DNA of 42,780 bases from Enterobacteria phage mEp043 c-1. The position numbers were made by a program, and so were the translations under genes. The notes under the pieces are model-generated. The model was given only the letters and a program-made list of their open reading frames with translations. It did not search any database and was not told where the DNA came from. How positions within the stretch are numbered: the first letter of the stretch is position 1; the number at the start of each line of letters is the position of its first letter. Where the stretch lies: sequence record NC_019706.1; one strand, 5' to 3'. Positions 1-20,252 of this stretch are shown here, piece after piece.

Positions 1-501
1 GTGTTCACCATCATGGACCAGGAAATTGCCACTTTAAAACTCAATATCAACCAGCTGGCAGGGATAACCGGCGTACACCGTCAGACGGTTGCCGCGAGAC
101 TGAAAAATGTTGAACCTGCTCCAGGCAGCAACAGCAAGTTAAAGCTCTATCTGGTGACCGACATTCTGACCGAACTGATGATCCCTACCGTTTCGGCCAA
201 CATCGACGATATGCCCCCTTCTGACAGGCTGTCCCACTGGAAAGCAGAGAACGAGAGGCTGAAGTTCGAACAGGATACGGGGCAGTTAATACCCGCAGAT
301 GAAGTGGCGCGAGAATTCTCATTGATGGCGAAAGCCGTCGTCATGGTACTTGAAACCCTCCCGGATGTGCTCGAGCGCGACTGTGCTTTAACGCCTGCTG
401 CGGTAGTTCGTGTGCAAAGCGTTATCGATGATCTGCGCGACCAGATGGCGGAGAAGGTGCAGGACGCTGGAAAAGAGGAGGAGCAGCCTGAGGAGGACTG
501 A
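1..501 (+). CDS. Terminase small subunit (Nu1-position, HTH DNA-binding)
   Basis: 166-aa ORF immediately upstream of and overlapping the large terminase start (ATGA-type junction at 499-503); N-terminal helix-turn-helix-like segment; acidic C-terminus. Window begins at a GTG; an in-frame ATG at 13 is an alternative start. Confidence 0.6.
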   Translation: MFTIMDQEIATLKLNINQLAGITGVHRQTVAARLKNVEPAPGSNSKLKLYLVTDILTELMIPTVSANIDDMPPSDRLSHWKAENERLKFEQDTGQLIPADEVAREFSLMAKAVVMVLETLPDVLERDCALTPAAVVRVQSVIDDLRDQMAEKVQDAGKEEEQPEED

Positions 502-15206: not shown

Positions 15207-18200
15207 ATGGGTGAAAAAATGCAGCTTCTTAAACAAGAAACCATCCTGCAGGGTGCCAAAGGGGGAGGTGGCAGTTCACATACTCCTGTTGAGCAGCCTG
15301 ACGATCTGTTGTCGGTCGCAAAATTAAAAATGCTCATTGCCGTTTCTGAGGGGGAAATACAGGGCGACCTGACCGCTCAGAATATTTTTCTCAACGATAC
15401 GCCGCTGGCAAACGACAGCGGGGAATACAACTTCAGCGGCGTGAAATGGGAGTTCCGCAAGGGCACACAGGACCAGACCTATATTGCCGGGATGCCCCAG
15501 GTCGACAACGAGCTGGCCGTGGGCACAACTGTCACCACCACCGCGCCCTGGACGCGCCAGTTTACAAACCTTTCCCTGGATGCCATCCGTATCAAGCTCA
15601 GCCTTCCGGTCCAGTATCTCTATAAAGATAATGGCGATATGGTGGGCACGGTCACCGAGTATGCGATCGATTTATCAACGGACGGCGGCGCCTGGAAAAC
15701 GGTTGTAAACGGCAAGTTTGACGGAAAGACCAAGACGGAATATCAGCGTGACCACCGTATCGATCTGCCAAAATCCACGTCCGGCTGGTCTGTCAGGGTC
15801 AGGCGTATTACGGCTGATGCCAGCGGATCAAATTCGAAACTGGTTAACGCCTTCAAGGTGTTTTCGTATGCGGAAGTCATCGACAGCAAGCTTCGTTATC
15901 CTTTAACAGCGCTCCTGTATGTCGAAGTGGACAGCAGCCAATTCAACGGCAGCGCGCCGAAAGTGACCTGTAAGATAAAAGGCAAGCTGATTAAGGTTCC
16001 GGATAATTACGATCCGAAAACCCGAACCTATTCTGGTTCATGGTCCGGCGGGTTCAAAATGGCATGGTCCAATAACCCTGCCTGGATCTTTTACGATCTG
16101 GTTCTGGATGAAATTTACGGCATGGGCACGCGCGTGGATGCGTCCATGGTGGATAAGTGGGCGCTGTATTCAATCGCCCAGTACTGTGACGAAATGGTTT
16201 CCGACGGGGCCGGTGGCACCGAACCGCGTTTCACCTGCAACGTTTTCATTCAGAGCCAGGAGGACGCCTGGCAGGTACTTAACGATCTCGCCGCGGTATT
16301 TCGTGGAATAACGTTCTGGGGCAACGATCAGATTTATGTCCAGGCAGACGTCCCGCAGGACGATGTTGACTGGGTTTATAACGTCTCAAACGTTATCGAT
16401 GGGCTGTTTACTTATGCGGGCGGCTCATACAAGAATCGCTACAGCTCCTGCCTGGTGTCCTGGTCCGATCCGCAGAATCATTACAGCGATACCGTTGAGG
16501 GGGTCTACGATTCGGCGCTGGTAGAGCGTTACGACGTCCGGCAGACGTCCCTGACCGCAATCGGCTGCACCTCGCAAAGTGAAGCGCACCGGCGCGGTCG
16601 CTGGGTATTACTCTCCAATGCCAAAGACGGCACCGTATCGTTTGGCGTGGGGTTGGACGGTTATATCCCTTTGCCCGCTGAAATTATCGGTGTCGCCGAT
16701 CCTTTCCGTTCTGGTAAGGAGAACGGGGGCCGCATAAGCGCGGTCAACGGCCGCCAGATTACCCTTGATCGAGAAATAGACTACGCGGCGAAAGACCGGC
16801 TGGTGGTTAACCTTCCCGACGGAAAAGCCCAGACGCGGACAATCAGCGCGGTGAGCGCCGATAAAAAAACGGTGACGGTGGCTACGGCATTCAGTCAGGT
16901 TCCTGTGGCTGGCGCTGTCTGGGCGATAGACAGTGATAACCTCGCAATACAGTACTTCAGGGTCACCTCAATCGCGGCTAACGACGACAGCACAGGCGGT
17001 TTCACTATTACGGCCGTTCAGCACGATCCAAACAAATATCGTTACATCGATGACGGCGTTCGGGTCGAGTCTCCCCCGATCACCGTCACGCCGATAAGCG
17101 TCCTGTCTGCTCCGAAGAATATCGTGGTGACTGAGAGCGATCATGTGTCTCAGGGGCTGACTGTAGCAAGCCTGGACGTGTCATGGGATAAGGTAGAGGG
17201 CGCAATCCGGTATGTTGCCCAGTGGCGTAAGGACAACGGGGACTGGATAAACGTTCCGGTTACCAGCGCGCAGGGTTTCTCGGTTCAGGGCATTTATTCG
17301 GGCAGCTATGACGTGCGCGTACGGGCACTGAATGCGCAGGATACGTCGTCACCATGGGGATACGGTGAAACAACTTATCTCTCCGGTAAAACGGGAAAAC
17401 CGGGTACTCCGCTCAACTTCCTGGCGACCGAAGATGTGGTCTGGCATATCGACCTGACATGGAAATTTCCGGATGGCTCAGGCGACACGGCCTATACAGA
17501 GATTCAGCGCGCCACAACTGCCGACTACGCCAATCCTGAACTGCTGGTCCTGGTGCCGTACCCGGCTGCAGATTATCAGCATGGCCCCATGCCTGCCGGC
17601 GTTCGCCAGTGGTACCGCGCGCGCCTGATTGACCGTATCGGTAACGCCGGGGACTGGACCGACTGGATCATGGGCACGTCCTCGATAGATGTCAGCGAAA
17701 TAACCAATGACATTCTGGAGGATATGAAAGAGTCGGAAACGTTCAAAGACCTGATCGAGAACGCGGTGGACAGCAACGAAAAAATTGCTGGCATGGCTAA
17801 CGATATCAAACAGGCTAACGACGAACTGGAGCAGCAAGCGAAAGATATCGCCAAAAATGCCCAGGACGTAGGGAAGGTTCAGACCAGCGTTAATGAGCTT
17901 TCCAGCACGGTCGGGAATGTTTCGTCTTCACTCAGTCAGCTTGAGCAGACCGTTGCGACGGCTGATACCGCCCTGGGCCAGCGAATCGACAACATCAGCG
18001 TTTCTATGGACGGCATGACGGGCGGGGTGAAGAACTCTGCAATTGCGATAATCCAGGCCAACCTCGCTCAGGTGGCCACGCGTAAAACCCTTTCTGCATC
18101 GGTCGCCGGCAACAGCGCGAATCTGGACCGTATTGATGAGGTGATTGTCAACGACAGGGAGGCAACGGCGCGCTCGCTGCTGAGCCTGCAGACGGACGTT

Positions 18201-18887
18201 AACGGCAACAAGGCATCCATAAACAGCCTGAATCAGACGTTCTCCGACTATCAGCAGGCAACGGCGCGCTCGCTGCTGAGCCTGCAGACGGACGTTAACG
18301 GCAACAAGGCATCCATAAACAGCCTGAATCAGACGTTCTCCGACTATCAGCAGGCAACGGCCACGCAGATAAACGGCATCACGGCGACCGTGAACGGGCA
18401 TACCTCAGCCATCACCACTAATGCTCAGGCGATAGCCAACGTTAATGGCGACCTCAGCGCGATGTATAACATCAAGGTTGGCGTAACCAGTAACGGGCAG
18501 TATTACGCTGCCGGGATGGGGATTGGGGTTCAGAATACACCCTCCGGCATGCAGTCACAGGTAATATTCCTGGCCGACCGATTTGCTGTTACCACTGCTG
18601 CCGGAAACAGCGTGGCGTTACCATTTGTGATCCAGAATGGTCAGACGTTCATCAGGGCCAGCTTCATTCAGGACGGTACCATTGAGAACGCCAAAATCGG
18701 TAACTATATCCAGTCGAATAACTATGTGGCTGGCTCTGCAGGCTGGAAACTTGATAAGGGGGGCACCTGGGAAAACTGCGGCAGCGACGGTCAGGGAGCA
18801 AGAAAATCCACCAATGTCACTGACAGTATCAGGGATTCAAATGGCGTGCTCCGCGTGCAAATCGGCAAACTTACAGGGGTGTTTTGA
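15207..18887 (+). CDS. J: Tail tip / host specificity protein J
   Basis: 1226-aa ORF; N-terminal and central regions resemble recalled lambda gpJ; C-terminal region divergent. Confidence 0.9.
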   Translation: MGEKMQLLKQETILQGAKGGGGSSHTPVEQPDDLLSVAKLKMLIAVSEGEIQGDLTAQNIFLNDTPLANDSGEYNFSGVKWEFRKGTQDQTYIAGMPQVDNELAVGTTVTTTAPWTRQFTNLSLDAIRIKLSLPVQYLYKDNGDMVGTVTEYAIDLSTDGGAWKTVVNGKFDGKTKTEYQRDHRIDLPKSTSGWSVRVRRITADASGSNSKLVNAFKVFSYAEVIDSKLRYPLTALLYVEVDSSQFNGSAPKVTCKIKGKLIKVPDNYDPKTRTYSGSWSGGFKMAWSNNPAWIFYDLVLDEIYGMGTRVDASMVDKWALYSIAQYCDEMVSDGAGGTEPRFTCNVFIQSQEDAWQVLNDLAAVFRGITFWGNDQIYVQADVPQDDVDWVYNVSNVIDGLFTYAGGSYKNRYSSCLVSWSDPQNHYSDTVEGVYDSALVERYDVRQTSLTAIGCTSQSEAHRRGRWVLLSNAKDGTVSFGVGLDGYIPLPAEIIGVADPFRSGKENGGRISAVNGRQITLDREIDYAAKDRLVVNLPDGKAQTRTISAVSADKKTVTVATAFSQVPVAGAVWAIDSDNLAIQYFRVTSIAANDDSTGGFTITAVQHDPNKYRYIDDGVRVESPPITVTPISVLSAPKNIVVTESDHVSQGLTVASLDVSWDKVEGAIRYVAQWRKDNGDWINVPVTSAQGFSVQGIYSGSYDVRVRALNAQDTSSPWGYGETTYLSGKTGKPGTPLNFLATEDVVWHIDLTWKFPDGSGDTAYTEIQRATTADYANPELLVLVPYPAADYQHGPMPAGVRQWYRARLIDRIGNAGDWTDWIMGTSSIDVSEITNDILEDMKESETFKDLIENAVDSNEKIAGMANDIKQANDELEQQAKDIAKNAQDVGKVQTSVNELSSTVGNVSSSLSQLEQTVATADTALGQRIDNISVSMDGMTGGVKNSAIAIIQANLAQVATRKTLSASVAGNSANLDRIDEVIVNDREATARSLLSLQTDVNGNKASINSLNQTFSDYQQATARSLLSLQTDVNGNKASINSLNQTFSDYQQATATQINGITATVNGHTSAITTNAQAIANVNGDLSAMYNIKVGVTSNGQYYAAGMGIGVQNTPSGMQSQVIFLADRFAVTTAAGNSVALPFVIQNGQTFIRASFIQDGTIENAKIGNYIQSNNYVAGSAGWKLDKGGTWENCGSDGQGARKSTNVTDSIRDSNGVLRVQIGKLTGVF
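18162..18353 (+). repeat. Perfect in-frame 96-bp tandem duplication (2 copies) within J
   Basis: 18162-18257 and 18258-18353 are identical, encoding ATARSLLSLQTDVNGNKASINSLNQTFSDYQQ twice; the next 8 nt also match before divergence. Confidence 0.95.
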
Positions 18888-19189
18888 TGTCATGGGGTAT
18901 ACAAACATGGGATGCGTCGGGTAAACCCAACAACTACGGTATCAAGCCAGTTTCAGTTGTTGGGCGTATACAGCTGGCTGCCGGACAAAACTCCGGCAGT
19001 TGGTCTTTCGCGATGCCCTCAGGAATGAAGGTCGGCTTTGTGCTCTCACTTGATGAAGGTGGAAACAGCGTAGGGAGGCGCATTGTCGCGTCAGGGAACA
19101 CAATAACCGTAACCGCTGCCTCTTCTGTAGGCCTAGGTAATTACCCGGCCTCTAAGTGTGAGGTGATCGTTTTCATGGAGAAAGTATAG
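18887..19189 (+). CDS. Hypothetical protein downstream of J
   Basis: 100 aa; ATG overlaps the J stop (TGATG); contains a WDASGK motif shared with the next ORF. Confidence 0.5.
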   Translation: MSWGIQTWDASGKPNNYGIKPVSVVGRIQLAAGQNSGSWSFAMPSGMKVGFVLSLDEGGNSVGRRIVASGNTITVTAASSVGLGNYPASKCEVIVFMEKV

Positions 19190-19863
19190 TGTCTGACTTT
19201 GGCGCAATGATATTAATGGAGAACGGCAATCCCTTTGTTACACCACAATCAACGCCTTTCTGCCTCTACGGAAAATACTCCTTCAATTCCTCAGCTAATG
19301 GCAGCTCTCAGCAGGTGGCGCAATATCTTTCGGTTCCTGACGATTATCCGGCAATGGTCTTCATAAAAACGACTAATACTGCGCAGCCGACCCCGGTCAT
19401 TTCATATCGGATTGGAGGAAATGTCTATATTAGTGGCGTAAATCCCTATAACCAGGGCTTTACGCTGACAGCATATGTATTTGCAATTTTTCCGCAAACA
19501 CTTCCCGCGTGGGGATTTGCTATCTGGGATGCCTCCGGGAAGCTTGTTCTGACGAACGAATCAAGGGTGCTTTCTGATCTGCAAACAGTGGGCACGCCAG
19601 GTGCAAGCGGCGGGATTAATATTGACCAGACGCTGAGCGGGTCATGGGCTGTTGCGCCTGCTCAGTTGGGTCAGACCATCATTGTGAATAATTCAACCAA
19701 GCCTCCGACTATCTACACGATAAATGCTTATTCTTCATGCAGGTTTGACGGGGCCAATACGAGGATAAACGCAGGGGGGACCTCCACTGGGGCAGGTTCA
19801 CCTGGAGGGGGAACGAATACTGGCATTTCATTAACCGCCATAAATACAGCGGCCTATGATTGA
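19189..19863 (+). CDS. Hypothetical protein (tail-associated?)
   Basis: 224 aa; GTG start overlapping the upstream stop, GGAG RBS at 19177-19180; internal WDASGK motif; Gly/Thr-rich C-terminus. Confidence 0.5.
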   Translation: MSDFGAMILMENGNPFVTPQSTPFCLYGKYSFNSSANGSSQQVAQYLSVPDDYPAMVFIKTTNTAQPTPVISYRIGGNVYISGVNPYNQGFTLTAYVFAIFPQTLPAWGFAIWDASGKLVLTNESRVLSDLQTVGTPGASGGINIDQTLSGSWAVAPAQLGQTIIVNNSTKPPTIYTINAYSSCRFDGANTRINAGGTSTGAGSPGGGTNTGISLTAINTAAYD

Positions 19864-19900
19864 TTGATCGTTTTTAGCGATCAATAACATAATATTGATC
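19864..19900. promoter_or_regulatory. GATC-dense inverted repeat upstream of the lipoprotein gene
   Basis: TTGATCG-TTTTTAG-CGATCAA inverted repeat (19864-19884) plus a third GATC at 19897-19900; three Dam sites in 37 bp of AT-rich intergenic DNA. Confidence 0.3.
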
Positions 19901-19974: not shown

Positions 19975-20208
19975 ATGAGAAAACTGATTATCTGCATGGC
20001 AGGCGCTGTCATGCTTACAGGATGCGCTGGCGTAATTGAGAAACAGGAACCAGTTTGCAGCGGCACTGCAATCGTTGGCGGTCAGGAAACTACGGTTCAG
20101 ATTTACGGTGTGCGTAAACAAAACAACCAGACGCAGTACCGGGCTGGATATCCTTTCAGCTGGCGCTGGGTAAGTGCGAATACATTTACCGAAACAACCT
20201 GCAAATAA
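19975..20208 (+). CDS. Small secreted lipoprotein (Cor-like superinfection-exclusion candidate)
   Basis: 77 aa; signal peptide with lipobox (LTGC); AT-rich moron immediately downstream of the J cluster, followed by its own terminator. Confidence 0.55.
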   Translation: MRKLIICMAGAVMLTGCAGVIEKQEPVCSGTAIVGGQETTVQIYGVRKQNNQTQYRAGYPFSWRWVSANTFTETTCK

Positions 20209-20230
20209 CCCACTACGCTTAAACATAAAC

Positions 20231-20252
20231 CTCGCTCCGGCGGGGTTTTTTT
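20231..20252 (+). terminator. Rho-independent terminator after the lipoprotein gene
   Basis: CTCGC-TCCG-GCGGG hairpin followed by a T7 run. Confidence 0.5.

Follow-up and report, generated by a model that had tools for sequence, protein, structure and literature searches.

The two genes directly downstream of the tail fibre gene J of phage mEp213 probably encode a detachable receptor-recognition module of the tail tip, the same as the gp22–gp23 pair of phi80, T1 and N15. Both products carry a hairpin element built around the motif WDASGK. Judged from the sequences, this element is real and conserved rather than a chance match, and it occurs in three copies in the pair, one in gp22 and two in gp23. 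The locus itself is known already; the architecture of repeated hairpins adds a small new detail. The analysis covered a stretch of 42,780 nucleotides from Enterobacteria phage mEp043 c-1 (sequence record NC_019706.1), in the following called the window; phage mEp213 is 100% identical to it.

J (15207–18887) encodes the central tail fibre or tail tip protein of 1226 aa, which is the presumed docking partner of the pair. It is followed by mEp213_019 (18887–19189), the gp22 homologue, and by mEp213_020 (19189–19863), the gp23 homologue; both open reading frames were found where the original prediction had placed them. The first has an ATG start and codes for 100 aa, consisting of a leader and a small predicted beta-sandwich (aa 24–99). 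The second has a GTG start and codes for 224 aa, predicted to form an all-beta protein of two modules; in the GenBank record of mEp213 the second gene starts six codons later than in phi80. Further downstream lies cor (19975–20208), the gene for the FhuA superinfection-exclusion lipoprotein (NCBIfam NF047972, E 9e-42, above the cut-off of this family), which has its own promoter and its own terminator (20227–20248). All four genes are on the plus strand. The stop codon of J and the start codon of the gp22 gene overlap by one base (TGATG), and so do the stop codon of the gp22 gene and the start codon of the gp23 gene (TAGTG). Because of these one-base overlaps both genes are coupled to J, as had been proposed. 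Between J and the two genes no promoter-like site was found, and terminator-like matches were weak only (stems of five pairs). The genes for gp22 and gp23 are translated together with J as part of the late tail operon.

By sequence, the pair after J is the already catalogued gp22/gp23 pair of phi80. The first protein matched PHROG 557 over its full length (E 9.7e-36) and aligns with the product of phi80 gene 22, likewise of 100 aa. The second matched PHROG 425 with residues 1–224 (E 5.1e-78) and is the homologue of phi80 gene 23; on clustering at 90% identity its exact 224-aa sequence falls together with phi80 AFV29163.1. At the DNA level phi80 genes 22, 23 and cor have 83% identity to this region. 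The gp22-gp23-cor cassette of phi80, N15, T1 and HK022 (PHROG 557 and PHROG 425) agrees with the mEp213 pair in the protein lengths (100 and 224 aa), in the order after J and in the cor neighbour, and no essential difference was seen. For gp22, 157 homologue clusters were found. gp23 is 59% identical to a protein of the FhuA-dependent phage Teewinot, and the 90%-identity cluster of the latter includes the protein of phage JLBYU60 and proteins of two BASEL phages. No Pfam or NCBIfam family was found for gp22 or gp23, sequence and profile searches of the PDB with both proteins returned no matches, and a second homologue search from the gp23 alignment gave no more distant members among the matches listed.

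The order J-gp22-gp23 was found in all 80 close loci; cor is present as well in 78 of these, and the other two end at a contig edge. At about 100 further loci with a gp22 of only 35–45% identity, which bring the related loci to about 180, a gp23-like gene adjoins, and each of the ten that were inspected in full has the order J, gp22-like, gp23-like and Cor-like lipoprotein. Linkage of cor to the pair was seen at every untruncated related locus examined. Phages of Burkholderia and Ralstonia and further E. coli phages also have small-then-large pairs with comparable leaders, and a Pseudomonas phage has a weaker form of such a pair. In three phages the pair occurs without a Cor-type gene: in Jahat it adjoins a different lipoprotein, in NBD2 a signal-peptide protein, and in Dina there is no adjacent lipoprotein. 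A related-locus search starting from one distant protein found no loci.

The original prediction that the two proteins are tail-tip accessory or receptor-binding components stands as the best-supported reading of the locus. It is based on the homology to phi80 gp22/gp23, on the coupling to a J protein that lacks a receptor-binding domain, on cor downstream and on the published assignment to FhuA. J contains the Pfam domains FNIII-A_GpJ, Phage-tail_3 and PF09327 (Phage_Tail_Tip, aa 1068–1205 of 1226) and matches the NCBIfam profile lambda_TipJ at profile positions 4–880 of 1163 only. With the Pfam and NCBIfam profiles no lambda-type receptor-binding domain was found downstream of the Phage_Tail_Tip domain, past which 21 residues remain. 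In lambda the C-terminal receptor-binding domain of gpJ, which has the same task and the same place in the virion, is a covalent part of J; in mEp213 the receptor task appears to be handed from J to separate gene products.

The locus has been assigned to FhuA recognition by genome–receptor correlation and AlphaFold modelling (PMC8594841; PMC12309495; bioRxiv 10.64898/2026.04.02.716166). The allele of the gp22/gp23 locus matches the receptor specificity (PMC8594841; bioRxiv 10.64898/2026.04.02.716166), and all ten BASEL phages with both proteins use FhuA (PMC13164509, section 2.5). AF2-Multimer placed a gp23-like protein on the tip of the J trimer and on FhuA (PMC12309495). FhuA dependence has been reported for phi80, T1, JLBYU60, Teewinot and, as a group, many mEp phages (PMC10373560; references cited in PMC9836094); for mEp213 itself no such statement was found. 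A literature search for virion proteomics of gp22/gp23 found nothing, and no direct experiment on their presence in virions or on their binding to FhuA was found there, the functional assignments in the papers considered being by correlation or modelling.

We considered whether one or both proteins could instead be assembly chaperones of the J tip which are not kept in the particle, the C-terminus of J itself binding FhuA. Small genes directly after a fibre gene are in the typical position for chaperones, and there is an analogy to Tfa, which serves the side fibre, or to factors of the T4 gp57/gp38 type. A chaperone that templates folding would also explain the likeness between the gp22 leader and the end of J described below, and the sequence of the J tip has itself been associated with specificity (bioRxiv 10.64898/2026.04.02.716166). 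Nevertheless, we regard this explanation as unlikely. Profiles of the known tail-fibre chaperone families (Pfam Caudo_TAP and relatives) matched neither gp22 nor gp23; in the same search the true Tfa of the phage (21201–21806) scored E 7e-28. The 21 residues of J past the tip domain leave little room for a receptor-binding surface, and AlphaFold modelled a J tip with FhuA poorly but a gp23-like protein with FhuA well (PMC12309495). The sole virion gel, of a related Pseudomonas phage, has a right-sized band of 21 kDa, obtained without mass spectrometry (PMC12309495). Finally, gp23 has the size, the good predicted folding and the variability that one would expect of a receptor-binding protein. 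For gp22 taken by itself, a chaperone function with absence from the particles could apply.

The AF2 models of gp22 (pLDDT 80.9) and gp23 (pLDDT 90.4, pTM 0.86) were used for Foldseek searches. For gp23 no similar solved fold was found in the PDB (best E 0.03, TM <0.27). The gp22 model gave weak matches only in BFVD and the PDB; these were small phage proteins and distal fibre or spike domains. Its best PDB match was 2vbm_A, the Sf6 tailspike (32% identity over 80 columns, E 0.22, TM 0.39), and the profile of the Sf6-type tailspike C-terminal domain, PF21519, scored 16.5 bits with residues 28–83 (E 0.0085; cut-off 27 bits). [quoted passage not shown] Nor did Foldseek clearly connect the structure of gp22 with that of any gp23-like protein.

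The motif WDASGK comprises residues 8–13 of gp22 (nt 18908–18925) and residues 113–118 of gp23 (nt 19525–19542). Within a context of 12 residues, SWGIQTWDASGK in gp22 and AWGFAIWDASGK in gp23, 8 of the 12 are identical; the BLASTP E of 6e-4 holds for this single pair and is too weak after correction over all pairs of open reading frames of the window. Pairwise and profile alignment, the check proposed with the original prediction, showed that the similarity goes past the hexapeptide and takes in a leader some 21 residues long, so that the similar local context that had been noticed in both open reading frames was confirmed by the 12-residue match and by a leader match of 21 columns. gp22 has one leader (aa 2–22, SWGIQTWDASGKPNNYGIKPV, 18890–18952, plus strand), which contains WDASGK; no other stretch of its family is as conserved. 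gp23 has two. The middle leader (aa 107–127, AWGFAIWDASGKLVLTNESRV, 19507–19569, plus strand) contains WDASGK and is predicted to form a strand–turn–strand hairpin at the junction between the modules, with DSSP strands at residues 111–113 and 119–122 of the AF2 model. The N-terminal leader (aa 2–22, SDFGAMILMENGNPFVTPQST, 19192–19254, plus strand) is degenerate. The common pattern, hydrophobic-x-hydrophobic-aromatic-D-x-x-G-x-L, reads as a hairpin and opens each module. In the monomer models the confidence is low for the gp22 leader (pLDDT <50 for residues 1–21) and for the N-terminal leader of gp23 (pLDDT 52–59). Tail-proximal parts of low confidence or disorder are likewise found in T5 pb5 and in the receptor-binding protein of Oekolampad (bioRxiv 10.1101/2025.07.07.663478).

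There are two ways in which such a motif could be shared by unrelated proteins. First, the match could be due to chance; second, it could be a convergent beta-turn. D-x-x-G hairpins are common, the BLASTP similarity is confined to the 12 residues, the C-terminal body of gp23 is unlike gp22, and an exhaustive gp22 profile search brought up no gp23-like protein. We conclude that the WDASGK match is not due to chance because it coincides with the best-conserved positions in each family, because the leader match exceeded every shuffle, because it is unique in the window and because it is retained in distant pairs. In the gp22 family the 12-residue window of highest information content is 7–18 (score 3.03 compared with a family mean of 2.13), and some 50 distant representatives, each about 100 aa long, retain the leader. 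In the gp23 family the most conserved block, residues 95–130, includes WDASGK, the motif's own window (107–118) ranking fifth, and the N-terminal leader is the second most conserved window. Profile–profile comparison with hhalign aligned the gp22 leader with the middle leader of gp23 over 21 columns (E 6.5e-9, z 12.8, reached by 0 of 150 column shuffles). The N-terminal leader of gp23 matched the middle leader with E 4e-4 (z 4.5, 1 of 150 shuffles) and the gp22 leader with E 1.4e-3 (z 3.2, 2 of 150 shuffles). When the leader HMM was run on the whole window translated in six frames, gp22 and gp23 only were found, the next best match having an E of 3.1. The motif is kept in both partners of distant phages' pairs that are only 25–45% identical to the mEp213 pair. 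Co-variation of the two leaders within phages is weakly supported (permutation P 0.04, calculated on sequences that are not independent).

The comparison of the modules likewise makes it quite improbable that gp22 and gp23 are unrelated. gp23 consists of a predicted N-terminal beta-sandwich (aa 20–104, 19246–19500) and a predicted C-terminal beta domain (aa 128–224, 19570–19860), both on the plus strand. A direct comparison of the whole-family profiles aligned 12 columns only; the wider relationships emerged after gp23 had been halved, the gp22 alignment had been widened by exhaustive search and shuffle controls had been added. The gp22 body then gave a weak but significant match to the N-terminal half of gp23 (hhalign E about 1e-3, precisely 9e-4; z 5.4; 1 of 150 shuffles), which at scores as weak as these suggests homology of the two. 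Along this alignment 32 of the 37 strand residues of gp22 fall on strands of gp23, the folds being compared here by the agreement of strand patterns between predicted structures. The gp23 HMM gave collinear weak matches on many small, independent proteins, and a small Burkholderia protein matched the gp23 profile over 57 positions (E 4e-8). In profile comparisons with shuffle controls the C-terminal body of gp23 was significantly similar neither to the gp22 body (z 0.7–1.0) nor to the N-terminal body of gp23 (z -0.6). The proposal of paralogous domains thus holds in part: it applies to the leaders and, at a weak level, to the gp22 body and the N-terminal half of gp23, but no sequence similarity to the 100-aa protein was detectable in the domain behind the WDASGK of the 224-aa protein. 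gp23 may have originated by tandem duplication of a gp22-like module, the second copy then diverging.

A hairpin-like segment at the C-terminus of J (aa 1203–1218, NVTDSIRDSNGVLRVQ, 18813–18860, plus strand) is in register with the leaders of gp22 and gp23. hhalign matched it to the middle leader of gp23 with E 4.9e-4 (z 5.0, 0 of 200 column shuffles), to the gp22 leader with E 1.3e-3 (z 4.3, 1 of 200) and to the N-terminal leader of gp23 with E 0.032 (z 2.3, 6 of 200). The conservation of the J end holds over 53 distinct sequences. This segment is a possible, and probably a true, fourth copy of the WDASGK-type hairpin element. The likeness of the J end to the leaders is short, and beta-turn hairpins of this kind can converge.

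The names "outer membrane" and "membrane associated" given to these proteins in PHROGs and RefSeq are unsupported, because both sequences lack a signal peptide and a membrane helix. The highest Kyte–Doolittle means over 19 residues are 1.14 for gp22 and 1.15 for gp23, compared with 2.02 for Cor, and those of the first 20 residues are -0.86 and 0.13; both proteins are predicted here to be soluble all-beta proteins without export signal. It is very improbable that the pair acts at the membrane together with Cor in superinfection exclusion, as the PHROG annotation and the KanT1 paper suggest: the strict linkage to cor and the exclusion link proposed in PMC13164509 (section 2.5) are in its favour, but Cor has the signal peptide, lipobox (LTGC) and hydrophobic helix that gp22 and gp23 lack, the pair is coupled to J in the late operon whereas cor has its own promoter and terminator, homologues have estimated membrane affinities much lower than that of Lom (PMC12309495, Table 1), and Jahat, NBD2 and Dina have the pair without a Cor-type gene.

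The reading of gp22 and gp23 as a receptor-recognition module agrees with what has been proposed for the Dhillonvirus JLBYU60. Its "Ig-like" (YP_010740311.1) and "hand-like" (YP_010740312.1) proteins belong to the same two families, and from modelling the larger one was likewise proposed to cap the J trimer and to bind FhuA; neither the shared leader nor an internal duplication was reported in that study (PMC12309495). T5 follows the same logic, with pb5 as a separate, non-covalent binder on the tip of the central fibre and Llp, comparable to Cor, as a lipoprotein of the periplasmic face that then blocks the same receptor (PMC9586334). However, T5 uses one protein and mEp213 two, no sequence, profile or significant Foldseek likeness to the pb5 family was found for gp23, and TonB is needed by T1 and phi80 but not by T5 (PMC10373560). 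Oekolampad (Bas18) has an LptD binder and the exclusion lipoprotein Rtp45 in the same position downstream of gpJ, the same pattern of binder plus excluder (bioRxiv 10.1101/2025.07.07.663478). This binder is described as belonging to an unrelated family specific for LptD (bioRxiv 10.64898/2026.04.02.716166), and its receptor binding was shown experimentally, whereas the FhuA-type pair is known from correlation and models.

In the mechanism that we propose, gp23 as the candidate FhuA-binding protein would cap the trimeric J tip and its variable beta surfaces would touch FhuA. gp22 would serve as an accessory subunit or an adaptor, or possibly in assembly. The leaders may be tail-proximal docking elements that are disordered in the isolated monomer models and fold against the terminal hairpins of J. 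Cor would block FhuA once infection or lysogeny has occurred, and therefore one cassette would both open and close the entry route. A further, rather doubtful idea is that the leader is a stacking beta-hairpin unit. A J trimer would present three hairpins, and gp22 with one and gp23 with two would add three more; in this way a heterodimer of gp22 and gp23 could prolong the threefold J as a pseudo-trimer and resolve the symmetry mismatch at the tail tip.

T1 and phi80 are classic phages, yet for small siphoviruses of their type and of the Dhillonvirus type the manner of FhuA recognition has never been shown directly. For cryo-EM the tail tip of phi80 or T1 proved too flexible (PMC11945409). The leader offers concrete residues for mutation, W8, D9 and G12 in gp22 and W113, D114 and G117 in gp23. 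The analysis also corrects the misleading "outer membrane" and "membrane associated" annotation which has spread through RefSeq and PHROGs and has led one paper to propose an exclusion role. Should gp23 turn out to be the binder and the leaders docking elements, the cassette would be a defined swappable unit, which would aid the retargeting of phages and the prediction of receptors from genomes. If the stacking of hairpins should prove true, the threefold tail would be converted into a single asymmetric surface for the monomeric FhuA, and this device would be common to the J-tip cassettes of Escherichia, Burkholderia, Ralstonia and Pseudomonas phages, whatever their receptor.

The region is 100% identical to phage mEp213 (JQ182733.1, genus Aguilavirus), with coordinates unchanged, and shares 83% identity with phi80 over a stretch spanning the J end, gene 22, gene 23 and cor. 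Downstream of the central tail fibre gene J (15207-18887) lie ORF A (18887-19189; 100 aa) and ORF B (19189-19863; 224 aa), homologues of phi80 gp22 and gp23, followed by cor (19975-20208), which encodes the FhuA superinfection-exclusion lipoprotein, the side fibre gene stf with the chaperone gene tfa, and then attP and int. The predicted coupling to J was borne out by one-base stop/start overlaps at both junctions: the A of the TGA of J is the A of the ATG of gene 22, and the G of the TAG of gene 22 is the G of the GTG of gene 23. Between the three genes no promoter-like sites and only weak terminator-like matches were found; a strong terminator is located 3' of cor (20227-20248). Genes 22 and 23 are coupled to J within the late operon, and cor is a moron with a separate promoter. 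An inverted repeat (TTGATCG-TTTTTAG-CGATCAA, 19861-19888), not called in the terminator scan, overlaps the gp23 stop codon 5' of the cor promoter.

In GenBank, gp23 (mEp213_020) starts at the ATG at 19207 (218 aa), and the phi80 protein is annotated from the overlapping start. Since the six residues upstream of 19207 (MSDFGA, with G5 invariant) are conserved at the protein level in 59 homologues, and given the phi80 annotation, the GTG at 19189 is the likelier start.

WDASGK occurs in gp22 at residues 8-13 and in gp23 at residues 113-118, and eight of the 12 residues around it match (BLASTP E 6e-4). This value refers to a single pair and would fail correction for all ORF pairs of a 43-kb phage, and therefore the motif was tested further. 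In family alignments, and then in wider sets, its positions are among the most conserved of each family; the most conserved 12-residue window of gp22 is 7-18, and the most conserved block of gp23 is 95-130. Profile-profile alignment of gp22 1-26 with gp23 105-130 extends the similarity past the hexapeptide to 21 columns (E 6.5e-9, z 12.8), a score reached by none of 150 column shuffles, bearing out the original observation of a shared motif in similar local context. We call this stretch the leader. A leader HMM run on the six-frame translation of the window found only gp22 and gp23, the next match having an E of 3.1.

Beyond the leader the similarity is fainter. A first profile comparison of gp22 and gp23 aligned only 12 columns. 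An exhaustive gp22 profile search gave 85 representatives, none of them gp23-like; about 50 were small proteins of about 100 aa, with identity down to about 25%, and the part kept by all of these is the N-terminal leader. The wider gp22 profile matches gp23 twice, both times from gp22 residue 1, at 106-203 (E 1e-5) and 2-98 (E 0.004). Positions ~20-90 of the profile also match giant proteins of 1000-4700 aa in up to 24 stretches each (for example the database proteins P0277, P0280 and P0289); these matches could stem from repeats of an Ig-like adhesin domain or be an artefact of composition.

Contributions of the leaders and of the beta regions following them (bodies) were separated by column-shuffle controls (hhalign, 150 shuffles). 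The gp22 body (22-100) matched the N-terminal body of gp23 (20-104) with E 9e-4 (z 5.4, 1/150 shuffles), and the C-terminal body (126-224) with E 0.1 (z 1.0, 23/150); the two gp23 bodies gave E 0.49 (z -0.6, 105/150). Residues 1-26 of gp23, which hold a degenerate leader, matched the middle leader of gp23 (E 4e-4, z 4.5, 1/150) and the gp22 leader (E 1.4e-3, z 3.2, 2/150). The suggested paralogy of domains is thus partly supported, by the leader and more weakly by the gp22 body and gp23 N-terminal body; the gp23 C-terminal body shows no detectable sequence similarity to gp22. When gp22 is aligned with the N-terminal part of gp23, 32 of its 37 predicted strand residues coincide with predicted strands of gp23, and strand states agree at 74% (shifted controls 31-69%). 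Against 54 small proteins the gp23 HMM gave weak matches in two collinear classes: either the leader and up to 57 positions align with HMM 107-163, or the body aligns with HMM 1-88 in constant register.

AlphaFold2 models were built with family alignments. The gp23 model is all-beta and confident (pLDDT 90.4, pTM 0.86) except for residues 1-20; its middle leader forms a strand (111-113), a turn at DASGK and a second strand (119-122). gp22 is predicted as a six-strand sandwich (residues 24-99, pLDDT 82-95) with a leader of pLDDT <50. No similar solved fold (Foldseek best E 0.03, TM <0.27) and no PDB sequence relative of gp23 was found. The gp22 model gave weak matches only, to small phage proteins, among them a Pseudomonas phage 98PfluR60PP protein, and to distal fibre or spike domains. 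Its best PDB match was the Sf6 tailspike (E 0.22, 32% identity over 80 columns), the Pfam Tailspike_C score was below threshold, and lambda J chains were absent from the top 50 PDB matches. The conserved gp22 strand SGNTITV includes NTITV (residues 70-74, window 19094-19108), which resembles the TonB box of FhuA (DTITV). Infection by T1 and phi80 needs TonB; the likeness is probably fortuitous and due to beta-strand composition.

These signals, weak but consistent, suggest that gp22 consists of a leader and a sandwich, and gp23 of a second leader and sandwich, a third leader and a different beta domain. gp23 may thus have arisen by tandem duplication, followed by divergence of the second copy.

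The pair recurs in other phages. In all 80 close loci J, with a conserved C-terminus, gp22 and gp23 follow in order, and cor is next in 78, the other two ending at a contig boundary. In about 100 loci with gp22 at 35-45% identity the adjoining ORF is always gp23-like (222-227 aa), abutting or overlapping, and a Cor-like lipoprotein and Stf follow in 10 of the 10 loci fully inspected. The J tip domain is present in 1882 phage records, from which distant loci were sampled and five phages detailed. Burkholderia phage vB_FUBS1 has, in a 300-nt annotation gap directly 3' of its J homologue, an unannotated 102-aa ORF with GLQIWDASGRLI (locus L192, PV072773.1, 3469-3777; 57 gp23-profile positions matched, E 4e-8), followed by a 238-aa protein with GLQVFDASGSLI. 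The pairs measure 103 and 218 aa in Ralstonia phage Dina, 102 and 217 aa in E. coli phage NBD2 (DASGNLV in both), 92 and 204 aa in Warwickvirus Jahat_MG145 (gp22 HMM E 8e-5, gp23 HMM E 1e-8) and 116 and 289 aa in Pseudomonas phage PMBT3. In the first four the order is small then large, and all three leaders are legible by eye; in PMBT3 they are more degenerate and the middle copy could not be placed confidently. From its presence in these five phages, the pair is a general J-tip device, beyond the cor-bearing coliphages. In two T1-like phages, NBD2 (locus L195, 3472-4849) and Jahat_MG145 (locus L194, 3462-4626), the pair is encoded on the other strand from J, together with a lipoprotein or a signal-peptide protein, so not every such pair is coupled to J; the small gene still comes before the large one. 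In P0284, a 139-aa database protein, the final ~90 residues of a J homologue run in frame into the first ~45 of a gp22 homologue (…RLTGCSDMAYGIQTWDASGK…); a natural J-gp22 fusion, a frameshift or an error in sequencing could account for it. P0311, P0175 and P0215 are among several database chimeras in which parts of gp22 or gp23 adjoin parts of Stf, TipJ or a minor tail protein, a pattern that points to events at the cassette borders, either recombination or assembly joins.

The locus itself is not new: PHROGs lists both genes, and recognition of the cassette dates from 2006 (per PMC13164509). Published genome-receptor correlations and structural models support a putative receptor-binding role, and the predicted tail-tip accessory or receptor-binding function agrees with current opinion. 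[quoted passage not shown] T1, HK022, N15, ES18 and phi80, all FhuA-dependent, carry the cassette, and each of the 10 BASEL phages encoding both proteins also uses FhuA (KanT1 paper, PMC13164509). In models of the JLBYU60 homologues a 23-kDa 'hand-like' protein caps the J trimer and docks to FhuA more confidently than the J tip or the small protein does (Matusiak et al., PMC12309495). The JLBYU60 protein belongs to the 90%-identity cluster of the protein of FhuA-dependent phage Teewinot, to which mEp213 gp23 is 59% identical. A chaperone role, for gp22 especially, is conceivable. The membrane role tied to exclusion that the KanT1 paper suggests (PMC13164509) was rejected, because signal peptide, lipobox and hydrophobic helix are absent from gp22 and gp23 and present in Cor, and both genes are coupled to J whereas cor is promoted separately.

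The match of J itself to the lambda TipJ profile breaks off at position 880 of 1163, and its Phage_Tail_Tip domain ends 21 residues ahead of the stop codon; J therefore lacks a lambda-type receptor-binding domain. A perfect 96-bp tandem duplication in the coiled-coil part of J (18160-18361; 2.1 copies, 100% match) repeats a 32-aa segment (ATARSLLSLQTDVNGNKASINSLNQTFSDYQQ); the central fibre shaft seems to have changed length recently. Residues 1203-1218 of J (NVTDSIRDSNGVLRVQ), conserved in 53 distinct J ends, are in register with the leaders. The J end matched the middle leader of gp23 (E 4.9e-4, z 5.0, 0/200 shuffles), the gp22 leader (E 1.3e-3, z 4.3, 1/200) and the N-terminal leader of gp23 (E 0.032, z 2.3, 6/200). 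It is a possible fourth copy, in a segment so short that convergence could explain the likeness.

The modular reading, with a hairpin leader three times in the pair, a probable echo at the J terminus and gp23 as a duplicated gp22-like module, appears to be new; neither the leader repeat nor the duplication was found in the papers covered. If the copy at the J end is real, it points to leaders that pack against the hairpins ending the J trimer, or that prolong them, and they may serve in docking and in the reduction of symmetry at the tip.
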